Positions 467-44,104 of a stretch of DNA of 64,000 nt are shown piece by piece (position 1 is the stretch's first letter; each line of letters opens with the position of its first letter). Position numbers and translations under genes: made by a program. Origin of the DNA: Ignavibacteriota bacterium (GTDB lineage: Bacteria > Bacteroidota > Ignavibacteria > UBA10030 > BY39). Below the pieces are notes generated by a model that searched no databases, was not told the origin of the DNA, and saw only the letters and a list, made by a program, of their open reading frames with translations. Location of the stretch: contig QOQV01000004.1 of assembly GCA_003327435.1 (NCBI GenBank), positions 130,467 to 194,466 on the forward strand, read 5' to 3'.

Positions 467-1770
467 CAACTAAGATTTTGCAATTCAGGATAAAGCGGAA
501 ATTTTTTGCAAAGTTCTATAACGCTCTGTTCTACTTCCTTATAAATTTTTTCGTTACCGATATTTGATAATACTTTGTTTATCATCTCAGCAATCAACTC
601 CATTTCTGGTTCTTTCATACCACGGGTTGTAACTGCTGGTGTACCGATTCTTATTCCGCTTGTTATCAAAGGACTTTTATCATCGAATGGGACAGCATTT
701 TTATTGACAGTAATTCCTGCCTGGTCGAGTGCTTCCTGAGCATCTTTACCTGTGAGGTTTTTATTTCTTAAATCAATTAGCATCAAGTGATTATCCGTTC
801 CGTTGGAAATTATATAATAACCCAACGAAATTAATTTATTTGCAAGTGTCTGCGCATTTTTGATTACCTGTCGTGCATAAGTTTCGAATTCGGGTTGTAG
901 ATTTTCAAGAAACCCAACGGCTTTTGCAGCAATTACATGCATTAGTGGCCCGCCTTGAATACCAGGAATTACCATTGAATCAATTAATTCAGACATCATT
1001 TTTCTTCTACCTGATTTTGGAGCGGTAATACCAAAGGGATTTTCATAATCTTTTCCAATAAGAATCAATCCACCACGAGGTCCTCTTAATGTTTTATGAG
1101 TAGTTGAAGTCACAACATGGCAATATGGTAGTGGATCGTTCAAAAGTTTTTTAGCAATTAGTCCGGCAGGATGAGCAATATCAGCAAACAGGAAAGCTCC
1201 AACTTTATCAGCAATTTCCCTGAAAGCTTTATAATCAATATTTCGTGAATAAGCACTTGCACCAACGGTAATCATTTTAGGTTTCTCTTTAAGGACAATT
1301 GTTTCAACTTCATCGTAATCGATATAGCCGGTTTCTTTTTTTACACCGTATGGCACGAAATTATATAGCTGACCTGAGAAGTTAACAGGTGAGCCGTGTG
1401 TGAGGTGGCCACCGTGTGAGAGATTCATACCTACTACTTTATCGCCAGGTTTTAAGAATGAAAAATACACAGCCATATTTGCTTGAGAACCAGAATGAGG
1501 TTGAACATTTGCGTATTCAGCGCCAAAAAGTTTTTTAACTCTTTCGCGCGCGAGATTCTCTGCAATATCAACGAAATCACAACCGCCATAGTATCGCTTT
1601 CCAGGATAACCTTCAGCATATTTATTTGTCATAACCGAACCCATTGCTTGCATAACTGCTAAACTCACAAAGTTTTCGGATGCTATTAACTCGAGTTTAG
1701 TATTTTGTCGGTTAATTTCTTTTCTTAGTGCGTCGAATATTTCCGGGTCAGATTTTAATAAACTATTCAT
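466..1770 (-). CDS. glyA: serine hydroxymethyltransferase
   Basis: 434 aa. PLP-lysine motif [12 protein letters not shown], and GGHLTHG are present. Full-length SHMT architecture. Confidence 0.95.
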
Positions 1771-39811: not shown

Positions 39812-42304
39812 TTAATTTGTTTCACTTAAAGATTGGTCGATTTTCTTTTTCCTTTTTTCTTTATTACCCTCAACAAATTTTAGTGTATTGGTTTTCGGAT
39901 TTAATTTTATCTGTATTATACTTCCTTCAGAGAATTTATTTTTCAGAATCTCTTCTGCAATACCATCTTCAACATATTTTTGAAGAACGCGTTTCAGAGG
40001 TCTTGCACCATATGCTGGATCAAAACCTTTATCAATTAAGAACTCTCTGGCTTTTCTGGATAACTGAACTTTAATGTTCATTGACTCCATTCTTTTCATT
40101 AAATCAGCAAGTTGTATGTCAATGATTTTATCAATATGTTCTCGTTCAAGATTATGGAATATTATAATATCATCAACACGATTTAAGAATTCTGGGTTGA
40201 AAACACGTTTAAGTGCATCTTCGACGGTTTGTTTCATTGCAGTATATTTATCTTTCGGGGTTTCAGTACCAAACCCAAAGCCGCCGGTAGTTTTAATATC
40301 TCGCGTTCCTATATTGGAAGTCATTATCAAAATGGTATTTTTAAAGTCGACTCTTCTTCCTAAACTATCGGTAAGTATTCCATCATCAAGTACCTGTAAC
40401 AAAATATTGAACACATCCGGATGAGCTTTTTCAATTTCATCAAGCAATACAACGGAGTAGGGTTTTCTTCTAACCTTTTCAGTTAGTTGTCCACCTTCTT
40501 CGTAGCCAACATAACCAGGAGGAGCACCAACAAGCCGTGATACAGAGAATTTTTCCATATATTCGCTCATATCAATTCTAATCAAGGCATCTTCTGAATC
40601 AAAAAGGTAACGGGCAAGCACTTTTGCCATTTCGGTTTTGCCAACACCTGTTGGTCCCAAAAAGATGAAAGAGCCAATTGGTCGTTTCGGATCTTTTAAT
40701 CCAGCTCTGGTTCTGCGTATTGCTTTGCTTAGTTTTTCGATTGCTTCATCCTGCCCAATGACCTGCTTTTTAAGTTCCTCTTCCATTTTCAGGAGTTTCT
40801 GGGATTCAGATTCTGCAATTTTATTCACAGGAATTCCGGTCATCATTGCTACAACTTCAGCAATGTGTTCTTCAGTTACATCAAAAACCATTTCCTGAGA
40901 TTTTTGTTCCCATGCACGCTTAGCAGCTTCAAGATCATTGTTTAATTTCTTTTCAAGATCTCGTAACCTTGCTGCTTCTTCATAATTTTGATTTTTAATT
41001 ACCTGTAATTTGGATTGTTTAATTTTTTCTATTTCAGCTTCAAGGTCCAGAATCTCCTGTGGAACATGAATATTGGATAAATGCACTCTTGCACCTGCTT
41101 CATCAAGCACATCTATTGCTTTATCCGGTAAGTATCTATCTGTAATATATCTGTCACTTAATTTTACAGCACTTTCGATTGCCTTATCAGTATAGCGCAC
41201 ACCATGATGTTGTTCGTATTTATGTTTTATTTGTTGTAATATCTGAATTGTTTCTTCAACTGTTGTAGGATCTATCATAATTTTCTGGAATCTTCTATCC
41301 AGAGCACCATCTTTTTCGATGTACTGTCGATATTCATCAAGTGTTGTGGCTCCTATGCATTGTAGTTCACCTCTTGACAAAGCTGGTTTAAACATATTAG
41401 AAGCATCCAGAGAACCCGATGCGCCTCCAGCTCCTACAATGGTATGTAATTCATCAATAAACAAAATAACATCTTTTGCCTTTTCGAGTTCATTCATCAC
41501 TGCTTTCATTCTTTCTTCAAATTGGCCACGATATTTTGTACCTGCAACAAGGGCGCCCAGATCAAGTGTAACAACTCTTTTATCGTGCAAAACCCTTGAG
41601 ACCTTTTTCTGAACAATTCTTAAAGCAAGTCCTTCAGCTATTGCTGTTTTCCCAACTCCAGGTTCACCAATTAAAACTGGATTGTTCTTTTTCCTTCTAC
41701 TTAGTACCTGGGCAACTCTTTCTATTTCTTTTTCTCTTCCTACAATTGGATCTAATTTATCTTCCATTGCGAGTTTTGTTAGGTCTCTTCCGAAGTTATC
41801 AAGTACAGGAGTCTTGGATTTTTCCGGTTTTTTCTCAACGGAAATTGTAGGTGGTGCTGGTGAAGTTTTGCCATTAATCAGATTATCCAGTTCACTTCTG
41901 ACTGCCTCATAAGTAACATTGAATTGATGCAATATTTGTGCAGCGATGTTATCATCGTCCCGCATCAATGATAGCAGAAGATGTTCAGTTCCAATCACAT
42001 CCGATTTATAAAGTTTTGCTTCAAGGTATGTTATTTTTAAAACTTTTTCAGCTTGTTTGGTAAGTGGGATATTTCCCATCGTCAGAGTAACGCCTGAACT
42101 ACGTACAGTATCTTCGATAGCTTTTTTGAGCTTATCCAGATTTACGCCCAGGTTTTTGAGTATTTTTACTGCGATACCCTGACCTTCGCGTATAATGCCT
42201 AAAAGCAGGTGTTCTGTGCCAATATAGTCGTGACCTAATCGAAGAGCTTCCTCGCGGCTATATTTTATCACATCCTGCACTCTATTTGAGAAGTTTCCTT
42301 CCAT
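39812..42304 (-). CDS. clpC: ATP-dependent Clp protease ATP-binding subunit ClpC
   Basis: Two Clp_N repeats. Two AAA+ modules with GEPGVGKT and GPTGVGKT Walker A motifs. UVR/linker coiled coil. 830 aa. Confidence 0.9.
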
Positions 42305-42575
42305 AATGTTCTTTCCTATTAATAAATTTTTTTTATTCTCATTTAAAACAACATAATAAATAATATTGCTGTTCCTTAAAAATCGCTATTATTACGATAG
42401 TTTCAGCTACTTTTAATATAAAGAAATTGTGTTGATTTATCAAATAAGCATATTGTGATAAAATTTTTTACTTTTTCAATATGAAAAATAAGCCTGGTGA
42501 AAATATATTTAATGGAGAAGTGAAGAATTTTGTGAGGTAATTAAGTTAAATGTTTTGTTGCGTTCACGAAGTTTA

Positions 42576-42671
42576 GGTCAGATGCTTCGATATTGCTCAG
42601 AGTTTAATGTCAGATGCTTCGCTAATGCTCAGGAGTTAATGTCAGATGCTTCGCTGACGCTCAGCATCACC
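42576..42671. repeat. three tandem 32-bp repeats (GTCAGATGCTTCG..TGCTCAG...TTAAT)
   Basis: Units start at 42576, 42608 and 42640. The third unit merges into the first 192-bp unit. Confidence 0.85.
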
Positions 42672-43206
42672 TGCCGACTGTCTTTCTGAGTGAGTCCGTT
42701 GGTAAACGGACGAACGAAGAATCTGATTGAGAGTAATCAGATCCTTCACTGCGTTCAGGATGACAGTTCGACTTTGTCATTCTGAACGAGTCCGTCAGTA
42801 GACGGACGAGTGAAGAATCTGACTGAAGCACTGTCAGATGTTTCGCTGGCGCTCAGCATGACCTGCCGACTGTCTTTCTGAGTGAGTCCGTTGGTAAACG
42901 GACGAACGAAGAATCTGACAAAGTATAATCAGATCCTTCACTTCGTTCAGGATGACAGTTCGACTTTGTCATTCTGAACGAGTCCGTCAGTAGACGGACG
43001 AGTGAAGAATCTGACTGAAGCACTGTCAGATGTTTCGCTTCGCTCAACATGACAGTAAAACTGATTCGCTTCATGTTTTTCTCGCAAAGAACGCAAAGGA
43101 AATCAACAAATATGTCAGATGTTTCGCTGGCGCTCAACATGACAATTACGCTTGTAATTCCAAGTGAGTCTGGTGGTAGATGGGTGATGAGCGAAGAATC
43201 TGATAC
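42640..43206. repeat. nested tandem array: 192-bp unit x2 (42640-42831 and 42832-43023), then decayed partial copies starting at 43024 and 43113
   Basis: The two full units are near-identical. Each holds perfect 7-bp-stem hairpins GTCCGTT-ggta-AACGGAC and GTCCGTC-agta-GACGGAC, plus an inverted hairpin-less copy of the same ~45-bp module. GC content is far above the local background. Confidence 0.85.
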
Positions 43207-43234
43207 CAAATTCTTAATCAAATTCACCTACTAT

Positions 43235-44104
43235 TTACCCCTTAACACTTCCTAAAGTCAAACCTGAAACAAGCCATCGACTCAATACAAGGAAAAGAAT
43301 TACAACTGGAATCATCACAATAAAAGATGCTGCCCCGTAAAGTCCCCATTCTGTTGTCATATTTGCCTCAAACGATTTCAATCCAAGTGGTAAAGTCCAT
43401 AATTGTGTATCCTGCAAAACCTGTGCTGCAACTATGTATTCAGACCAGGCAGCCATAAAAGAGAAAAGACCTGTGATCACAAGAGCCGGTGCTGCAAGTG
43501 GTAAAATTATTTTATAAAATGCCTGAAACTGATTACATCCATCAATCTTTGCTGCTTCCTCCAAACTATACGGTATCGTATCATAATAACCTTTCATCGT
43601 CCAAACACAAAATGGTAATGCAGTTGCAGTATATATGATTATTATTCCAAGGTAAGAATTTATTAAACCCAAATAAATCAGCATAATGTATAACGGTAAA
43701 AGCAACATAGTTGCTGGAAACATTTGCGTGACCAGCAAGCTCAGAAGTCCAATTTTCTTTCCAATAAAATTAAAACGGGAAAAAGCATATCCAGCCATCG
43801 AAGCAAACACAACACCCGTAAGTGTTACCACAAAAGCTACAAACGCACTATTTGTAACCCATAATAAAAATGGTCTATTGGTAAATAATTCAATGTATGA
43901 TTTAAGTGTAGCATTTTCAGGAATGATCTCAAGTGATGTGGACAATAATCTGTCGGCTGGTCTTAACGAAATTGTAACAACCTGCAAAACAGGATATACT
44001 GCAATAATTGTAAAAATTATTAAAGTAAGATGTGTTATTAACTTTAAAATTAGTTTTTTAGTATTTAGTTTTTTGTTCATTTTAGTATGCCGATTCTGTT
44101 GCAC
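43235..44104 (-). CDS. carbohydrate ABC transporter permease (MalG-like)
   Basis: Six TM segments; EAA loop EEAAKIDGCNQFQAFYKIILP. Confidence 0.8.
   Translation of the reverse strand: MQQNRHTKMNKKLNTKKLILKLITHLTLIIFTIIAVYPVLQVVTISLRPADRLLSTSLEIIPENATLKSYIELFTNRPFLLWVTNSAFVAFVVTLTGVVFASMAGYAFSRFNFIGKKIGLLSLLVTQMFPATMLLLPLYIMLIYLGLINSYLGIIIIYTATALPFCVWTMKGYYDTIPYSLEEAAKIDGCNQFQAFYKIILPLAAPALVITGLFSFMAAWSEYIVAAQVLQDTQLWTLPLGLKSFEANMTTEWGLYGAASFIVMIPVVILFLVLSRWLVSGLTLGSVKG

Follow-up and report, generated by a model that had tools for sequence, protein, structure and literature searches.

The window analysed here is the whole 64 kb stretch of contig QOQV01000004.1, from an Ignavibacteriota bacterium, and the array under study is a block of ~630 bp within it (positions 42576-43206) located between a sugar ABC-transporter operon and clpC, a gene for a ClpC-type AAA+ chaperone. 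We consider it probable, at roughly three chances in four, that this block is a cluster of a repetitive extragenic palindrome (REP)-type element similar to the bacterial interspersed mosaic elements (BIMEs). Many dispersed copies of this hairpin are found in ~20 phyla, typically as tail-to-tail doublets and occasionally as long alternating arrays. In the lineage of the window, a heterodimer of a short(-) and a long(+) form lies between the ABC-transporter operon and clpC, no module is found there in the sister genomes, and the permease-clpC locus is polymorphic in both presence and copy number. The doublets, the alternating arrays, the intergenic dispersal and the intragenic copies point to a behavior like that of REPs, REPINs (REP doublets forming hairpins) and BIMEs. 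A first-pass annotation of the sequence had proposed a locally amplified selfish element resembling a REP or a miniature inverted-repeat transposable element (MITE). The first half of this proposal agrees with a family that is dispersed and accessory and that has covarying stems and doublets; the second half had to be abandoned because terminal inverted repeats and target duplications are both missing from the array.

A hairpin family dispersed across phyla

All modules follow a shared plan, (T)GUCA-UNCU-GA-NN-tip-N'N'-GA-AGN'A-UC-UGAC, which describes an imperfect hairpin of ~30 nt (in full, TGTC-ATTCTGAGC-GAA-GCGAAGAAT-CTGA). An outer clamp of 4 bp with a 2-nt bulge is followed by a 4-bp stem, and inside this stem there are a tandem G.A/A.G mismatch, a 2-bp step and the tip. 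The tip is a small GNA or GNNA loop in the short form, while in the long form it consists of a second G.A step and a 7-bp hairpin. Among the window copies, N/N' is U/A, G/C or C/G and the inner step is GU/AC, AC/GU or GC/GC; in modules 11 and 12 a C>U change is compensated by a G>A change. On the complement strand the G.A pairs become C.U/U.C. As RNA, the G.A strand is slightly more stable (-9.9 vs -8.1 and -22.5 vs -19.2 kcal/mol), a small asymmetry that does not decide between single-stranded DNA and RNA.

The pattern GTCATNCTGA-N7-37-GAAGNATCTGAC, with 20 fixed bases, was searched for exact matches in one genome per species. At least 120 loci were found outside the window, in ~20 phyla among the matches listed, with the record labels Ignavibacteriota, Bacteroidota, Chlorobiaceae, Armatimonadota, Chloroflexota, Planctomycetota, Nitrospirota, Bacillota, Verrucomicrobiota, Acidobacteriota, Omnitrophota, Cyanobacteria and others. 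The N/N' stem pair, which the pattern leaves free, was Watson-Crick in 124 of the 130 matches listed (CG 60, UA 57, GC 7), compared with 25% expected by chance. Tips of 7 nt were present in 53 of these 130 matches, 45 of the 53 being GC-GNA-GC, and the longer tips were hairpins themselves. An alignment of 48 foreign copies was 98.8% paired and its covariation score was reached by no shuffle, with 7 of the 10 pairs being set by the search pattern and hence uninformative. Copies and conserved structure elsewhere, both implied by the mobile element of the first-pass annotation, were therefore found.

A covariance model, R1, was built from foreign copies only, leaving out those of the window. R1 identified 10 modules in the window at E<0.1, eight of them at E<1e-6, and, with filters off, nothing further in the 64 kb beyond the modules of the array. 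In the 120 loci listed it recognized 227 copies, with two or more matches in 69 loci. As many as 102 of the 227 copies fall outside the search pattern; 75 were parsed and 61 of them keep TYCT-GA..GA-AGRA, while the remaining parsed copies are covarying variants (CCCT/AGGG, TGCT/AGCA, TTCC/GGAA). Because these secondary copies keep the same stems, the conservation of the hairpin across phyla is judged, from the sequences, to be real and not an artefact of the search method. A scan of metagenomes with the long-module subtype of the window produced 17 unrelated contigs in which the stems of the tips also covary (GTCCA/TGGAC, GTCCCGC/GCGGGAC, GTCCGGC/GCCGGAC).

The shape of the arms bears on the MITE proposal, according to which the array would derive by deletion from an insertion sequence (IS) and would owe its mobility to a DDE transposase that acts on terminal inverted repeats. 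The array is indeed short, non-coding, repeated and palindromic, but its two arms do not form plain inverted repeats. Every copy, whatever the phylum, keeps the G.A mismatches and the 2-nt bulge, and this conservation suggests that a structure is recognized rather than a sequence. Furthermore, no target-site duplications were seen, no transposase was a recurrent neighbor in the 120 loci listed, and the unit is only ~30 nt. A MITE origin is therefore hardly credible.

In the loci listed, ~80% of the matches are intergenic according to a simple open reading frame (ORF) heuristic. There is no strand bias: of the hairpins located between co-directional genes, 25 share the gene strand and 29 are opposite to it. 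Convergent genes flank another 16, and divergent genes 10. Of the neighbor pairs within 150 nt, 47 are tail-to-tail, 11 head-to-head and 12 direct, mostly with spacers of 0-20 nt. Large arrays with alternating short and long modules were found in L143 (~20 cores over ~1.7 kb, with periods of 103 and 122 bp), L140 (10 cores) and L147 (11 cores), and tandem runs of partial modules resembling the 32-bp units of the window in L032, L038 and L088. In two loci (L093:3845-3929 and L119:2485-2538) the hairpin lies in frame within genes for NtrC-type sigma54 response regulators, in both cases at the linker that joins the AAA_lid_14 domain to HTH_8.

Several other observations were made in these loci. 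Beside the hairpin array of L143, a gene-free tract of ~2 kb holds 17.9 tandem copies of an unrelated 21-bp repeat, GACTGCGAAGCCACCTGACCC (L143:1932-2307). The Bacteroidales loci L037, L038, L054 and L066 have the hairpin within long ORFs on the same strand. Nested modules in L018, L019, L040, L046 and L103 (e.g. L019:207-267) hold an inverted short module in the tip, GTCATCCTGAGCC-CTTCGCTAGCGCTCAGGAT-AAACTCCGCGAAGGATCTGAC, and look as if one element had been inserted in the loop of another. A contig binned as Nanoarchaeota (L012, JAHIPG010000372.1) has one well-formed hairpin and a second R1 match; either the copy is truly archaeal or a bacterial contig was mis-binned. Matches were few in viral contigs (3 in 2.9 million), phage records (1) and plasmids (11 in 72,556), and a phage or plasmid was rejected as the dedicated carrier on these numbers.

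Covarying stems could also be expected from tandem genes for structured small RNAs, an alternative considered in the first-pass annotation, or from self-cleaving ribozymes, and the CUGA...GA...GAAG core is superficially similar to that of a hammerhead. The hammerhead was rejected because the CUGA-NN-GA spacing is wrong, the unit is a single unbranched hairpin instead of a three-way junction, and there is no Rfam match. A cmscan of positions 42000-43700 against Rfam 15 at E<=10 resulted in four chance-level matches, none of them within the array. Moreover, the alternating orientation would make half of the units antisense, promoter or terminator signals were not found for the individual units, and the lack of strand bias, the in-frame intragenic copies and the absence of the array in sister genomes do not fit genes of this kind. 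Small RNAs or ribozymes are therefore an extremely improbable explanation.

The array and its surroundings

Tandem Repeats Finder detected a 32-bp period (3.0 copies) at 42570-42664 and nested periods of 96 bp (4.3 copies) and 192 bp (2.2 copies, 94% matches, no indels) at 42640-43055. In a repeat search the 192-nt copies at 42640-42831 and 42832-43023 shared 95% identity, with 9 differences. These results confirmed the three tandem 32-bp units and the nearly identical pair of 192-bp units described before. Once all units are turned the same way, 13 hairpin modules are distinguished whose orientation alternates (Table 1). Short modules, of ~31 nt, are on the minus strand and long modules, of ~49 nt, on the plus strand, and the spacers between them are 7-9 nt long and recurring (CTGCCGAC, TCGACTT, TGAAGCAC). 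The basic repeat is a short/long heterodimer of 96 bp, two of which make up the 192-bp unit, and not a module of ~45 bp arranged head to tail as had been thought. The 32-bp units correspond to incomplete short modules, without the 5' arm. The 7-bp stem-loops reported in the first-pass annotation are present (GTCCGTT/AACGGAC and TCCGTC/GACGGA), and what it saw as inverted module copies without a hairpin are the minus-strand short modules. Its decayed copies from 43024 and 43113 do include degenerate material, but they are really a short module, a 56-nt spacer, and another short module followed by a degenerate long one (43113-43204).

The core GAAGNATCTGA, with at most one mismatch, occurs 20 times in the window, 13 of them inside the array, compared with 5.5 +/- 2.4 in shuffles; the array therefore exceeds chance, and no convincing occurrence was found elsewhere in the 64 kb. 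The GC content of the array (0.46, with a peak of 0.485) is higher than that of the window (0.342), as expected from the earlier estimates of ~50% inside and ~35% around it, the first of which was slightly too high. A CRISPR array, already discounted in the first-pass annotation, was rejected since the orientation of the repeats alternates, the 7-9 nt spacers are themselves repeated, and there is no cas among the neighboring genes.

Table 1. Features of the array and of its surroundings in the window
Feature	Position	Strand	Remarks
ClpC-type AAA+ chaperone gene	39812..42304	-	Downstream of the array on the minus strand
Best sigma70-like match	42415..42443	-	TTGATA-17-TATATT; between the array and the clpC start
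Partial short module 1 (first 32-bp unit)	42576..42606	-	3' arm GAAGCATCTGAC and CTGAGC retained, 5' GTCAT gone; weak R1 match at 42585-42600
Partial short module 2 (second 32-bp unit)	42608..42638	-	R1 match at 42613-42634, E 0.09; absent in strains L002 and L003
Short module 3	42640..42670	-	GTGATGCTGA-GC-GTCA-GC-GAAGCATCTGACA; R1 32.5 bits, E 9e-8; folds
Two 192-bp units	42640..43023		Each made of two short(-)/long(+) heterodimers; 9 sites differ
Long module 4	42679..42727	+	Second G.A step, 7-bp tip hairpin GTCCGTT/AACGGAC, inner step GU/AC; R1 E 0.06
Short module 5	42737..42767	-	GTCATCCTGA-AC-GCA-GT-GAAGGATCTGA; R1 42.6 bits, E 6e-11
Long module 6	42775..42823	+	Inner step AC/GU, tip TCCGTC/GACGGA; R1 31 bits, E 2.5e-7; fold -22.5 kcal/mol, z -3.8
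Short module 7	42832..42862	-	R1 33 bits, E 6e-8
124-aa ORF	42853..43227	-	Runs through the repeats; no Pfam family
Long module 8 (copy of module 4)	42871..42919	+	R1 E 0.004
Short module 9 (copy of module 5)	42929..42959	-	R1 44.8 bits, E 1.3e-11
Long module 10 (copy of module 6)	42967..43015	+	R1 31 bits
Short module 11	43024..43056	-	Compensated stem GTTGA...GAAAC, GCGAAGC minihairpin tip; R1 42.2 bits, E 8e-11
Unique 56-nt spacer breaking the array	43057..43112		Sequence
Short module 12	43113..43143	-	Compensated GTTGA...GAAAC; R1 40.7 bits, E 2.4e-10
Degenerate long module 13	43153..43204	+	74% identity to the long-module reference
Permease, last gene of the sugar ABC-transporter operon	43235..44080	-	Stop codon 29 nt from the array

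The order on the minus strand is the 3' end of the operon, the array, ~270 nt of AT-rich DNA, and clpC. The sugar ABC-transporter operon codes for a binding protein and two permeases, with an amylase upstream, in agreement with the clpC gene and maltodextrin locus that had been named as flanks. The permease is a 281-aa product; the 289-aa ORF called mechanically has no exact database record. The nearest named homologues of the permease are in metagenome-assembled genomes (MAGs) labelled Bacteroidota, Ignavibacteriales or Ignavibacteriae, which places the host in the FCB group (Fibrobacteres, Chlorobi and Bacteroidetes).

The 124-aa ORF is spurious, as had been recognized before, and this "hypothetical protein" should stay unannotated. 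Peptides such as …CHSERSEESD…, VILSEAKNL/DL and HPERSEGS recur in spurious ORFs of this kind (e.g. L122:1334-1813(-) and 42853-43227(-) of the window), and it is likely that they have been annotated as hypothetical proteins in many MAGs. The first-pass annotation had associated peptides of this kind with genomes of the FCB group. The peptides do recur, but the family that generates them reaches far past those genomes, to ~20 phyla. The family is a widespread source of both spurious ORFs and contig breaks in MAGs.

As had been proposed, the clpC-transporter spacers of relatives were compared. Three contigs with a 97%-identical permease keep the permease-clpC synteny, and their spacer has 366 bp and no module, compared with 930 bp in the window. 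An alignment of the sister spacers showed that the clpC-proximal ~160 nt are conserved and the array is missing; the boundaries of the insertion are undefinable since the AT-rich spacer is too diverged. No hairpin was detected by R1 at E<=1 in ~77 kb from sister and more distant relatives. Strains with an identical ClpC also differ, with L002 and L003 having two 32-bp units and not three. Every short-read contig ends inside the array, on one side or the other (L001:1-110, L002/L003:1-80, L004:11742-12035, end of L005), so the array accounts for assembly breaks in this lineage, and these ends corroborate its outer ~110 and ~290 nt. In distant relatives (L152-L156, compared with 42304-44080) the region 3' of the maltodextrin-type ABC operon is different: a 7TMR-HD protein and a Xer-like integrase are found in L152-L154 and an amylase in L155. 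The lack of conserved gene order in these genomes suggests that the permease-clpC junction itself is recent. The comparison of sequences indicates that the array is accessory, lineage-specific and, because close relatives lack it, dispensable.

This comparison also weakens the other alternative of the first-pass annotation, a set of protein-binding sites acting in cis to control clpC. Repeated, nearly identical sites ~270 nt upstream of the clpC start codon would be consistent with such a role, but the sister genomes conserve the clpC-proximal ~160 nt and yet lack the array, the same hairpin is found beside unrelated genes in ~20 phyla, and the best promoter-like site is located between the array and clpC. 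A regulatory array for clpC is therefore very unlikely.

Under the preferred reading, a BIME-like cluster of a REP-type element, the hairpin would form on one strand, as single-stranded DNA or as RNA, and would be recognized as a structure by a candidate structure-specific enzyme that acts in trans and spreads it. The heterodimer may then have multiplied at this site through slippage during replication or through unequal recombination; such an expansion would produce the 96-bp heterodimer, the 192-bp unit with 9 differences, the partial 32-bp units and the variable number of 32-bp units between strains. The array would be non-essential in its present location and could act, at most, as an incidental folded 3' barrier or insulator against read-through from the transporter operon.

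Folding of the array and the search for a partner enzyme

The minus-strand RNA of the array has a predicted folding energy of -245.6 kcal/mol (z -13.2), and both strands are far more stable than their shuffles (z -13.2 and -11.7), so that the folding suggested in the first-pass annotation was borne out for the array. These values raise the question of an RNA element that has been exapted, i.e., a transcribed array that folds into a stack of hairpins and halts 3' exonucleases or dampens read-through into clpC. REPs in the malEFG operon of E. coli have been reported to act as a 3' RNA barrier of this type. On the transcribed strand, the array starts 29 nt past the stop codon of the permease, no canonical intrinsic terminator was predicted in 42100-43500, and tail-to-tail doublets supply any transcript with one copy in the G.A sense. 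On the other hand, sister genomes have the same arrangement of operon and clpC without any module, the family shows no orientation bias relative to neighboring genes, and the RNA effect would be secondary to the element and would not explain its origin. As an explanation of the array, exaptation is thus unlikely.

The ORFs of the 120 loci listed were compared all-vs-all by BLAST to identify recurrent neighbor proteins. Only generic families were obtained, the top clusters covering 11 and 10 loci, and one of these clusters was the NtrC-type regulator in which the hairpin is intragenic. A sample of 8 kb per genome, comprising 137 loci, included two genes for Y1 (IS200-like) transposases, Y1_Tnp. 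One of them (1112..1663) is part of a Planctomycetota REPtron in L122 (900-1800), where this gene of the Y1_Tnp/RAYT type (RAYT, REP-associated tyrosine transposase) lies between canonical GTAG REPs, GTAGGGTGCGT-N4-ACGCACCCT. Two direct hairpins of the family described here, with a 19-nt tail, AATTGAAGGGATACAGCAA, adjoin the same gene (about 1031-1075 and 1741-1790), and two repeat classes therefore co-reside at a single site. The other gene, in L075, is flanked by other hairpins and its nearest family copy is 2.7 kb away. Both Y1_Tnp genes have GTAG-type hairpins of their own, and for these 8-kb samples an association of the family with RAYTs was rejected.

Some of these results weigh against a REP-type element. 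No mobilizing enzyme was found, nor, in the 8-kb samples of the 137 loci, any RAYT gene with the family hairpin as its cognate repeat. REPs are normally species- or genus-specific and co-evolve with their RAYT; a nearly identical hairpin across phyla is unusual in this respect and might indicate a host function. Single short modules are thermodynamically unexceptional, with z about -0.5 to -2. The 64-kb window and the ~77 kb of sister-genome sequence contain no further copy, and the dispersal of the family is seen in other genomes. Finally, the number of 192-bp units is that of the source assembly alone, which no independent assembly confirms.

The array itself is ordinary, and the interest lies in a pan-phylum hairpin without a known partner enzyme. 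The relation between hairpin copy number and gene content across thousands of genomes could nominate this partner.

Comparison with known repeat systems

The MITEs of the Correia/NEMIS, ERIC and RUP types are also small, non-coding, repeated and foldable. They differ in having 100-400 bp, terminal inverted repeats, target duplications and an identifiable parent IS, none of which was found here.

The similarities to the BIMEs and REPINs of E. coli are more extensive. Alternating REP copies of two length classes, short spacers, tandem intergenic amplification, often at the 3' ends of operons, conserved irregularities of the hairpin, inverted doublets, and strain variation in presence and copy number are common to both. 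The BIME layout is found in the window and in L143, L140 and L147, where two module types alternate with short recurring spacers. In contrast to the E. coli elements, which have a GTAG tag and a RAYT (TnpA_REP), the flank here is TT-GTCAT with no GTAG, and the hairpin sequence is conserved across phyla rather than species-specific.

A literature search with the sequence string and the spurious peptides returned no description of this hairpin family. The closest published class is that of the CGTC-tagged REPs (Di Nocera, De Gregorio & Rocco 2013; PMC3733652). The text of that paper gives them a CGTC tag, often TGTC, a fully paired stem of 8-9 bp that starts with A,T, a loop of 4-5 nt and a CCA tail; they are often dimeric, their hosts include Chlorobi and Bacteroidetes among others, dRS3 of Neisseria and RPE-4/RPE-6 of Rickettsia belong to them, and in that description they have no dedicated RAYT. 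The peptides given there for CGTC-1 (VIPAKAGI, SFPRKRES, DSRFRGND, WIPAFAGMT) back-translate to CGTC-ATTCCCGC-GAAA-GCGGGAAT-CCA. Compared with this description, the window hairpin also has a (C/T)GTC tag at one end and a short 3' tail starting with C. In the 130 matches listed, GTCAT is preceded by T 105 times, by C 12 times, by A 7 times and by G 6 times, and the window modules read TGTCAT or TGTCTT at the tag. The stem opens and closes with A,T (GTC-AT...AT-C) in every window module that keeps the arm, a feature that is set by the search pattern in the foreign set and is independent only in the window and the secondary copies. Inverted dimers, forward and then reverse (SFPRKRES...DSRFRGND, VIPAKAGI...IPAFAGMT), are comparable to the 47 "+ -" doublets found here. 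Both groups are multi-copy, form clusters and have in-frame intragenic copies, and no dedicated tyrosine transposase is described in that text or was found in the 8-kb samples; the copies within the NtrC-type genes (L093, L119) resemble the intragenic RPEs of Rickettsia.

The differences from the same description concern the hairpin itself. The stem here has 9 positions with an invariant G.A/A.G and a covarying 2-bp step instead of 8-9 fully paired bp. The loop is a GNA of 3 nt (45 of the 53 seven-nt tips), a loop of 4 nt or an inserted hairpin, and in place of an unpaired CCA tail there is CTGA(C), whose next base is unbiased and which can pair with the tag across the 2-nt bulge. On sequence grounds, the element is most closely placed as a variant within the CGTC-tagged superfamily, provisionally set apart from its Chlorobi/Bacteroidetes families by comparison with the text description and not with the consensus figure. 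A hairpin with fixed non-canonical pairs in many phyla and no cognate transposase in sight makes it possible to approach what mobilizes or maintains the CGTC REPs.

A second likeness is to the Bpu elements, short interspersed elements of Cycas and Ginkgo mitochondria (Chaw et al. 2008; consensus AAGGTTATCCCTTTCCTGAGCGTAGCGAAGGGAAGG as quoted in PMC8297867), which have a 36-nt unit, terminal direct repeats AAGG, a Bpu10I site, and a high-copy, dispersed distribution. This consensus shares with the family an 18-nt core, TCCTGAGCGTAGCGAAGG, that includes CCTGAGC, and the same CTGA-GC-GNA-GC-GAAG hairpin with tandem G.A and GNA triloop (compare 42737-42767 and L025/L120). Compared by consensus string only, the Bpu elements differ in their host, a plant organelle, and in having CCCTT...GGGAAGG and AAGG termini instead of TGTCAT...ATCTGAC. 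No paper linking them to bacterial repeats was found in the literature. It is conceivable, although we consider it rather doubtful, that the hairpin with its tandem G.A, GNA tip and TGTC...CTGAC clamp is the recognition structure of a widespread enzyme or host factor, other than a RAYT, that acts in trans, and that Bpu is a branch of an undescribed class of mobile repeats, pan-bacterial and organellar. If true, this would explain how one sequence of ~30 nt persists in ~20 phyla when other REPs are specific to their lineage.

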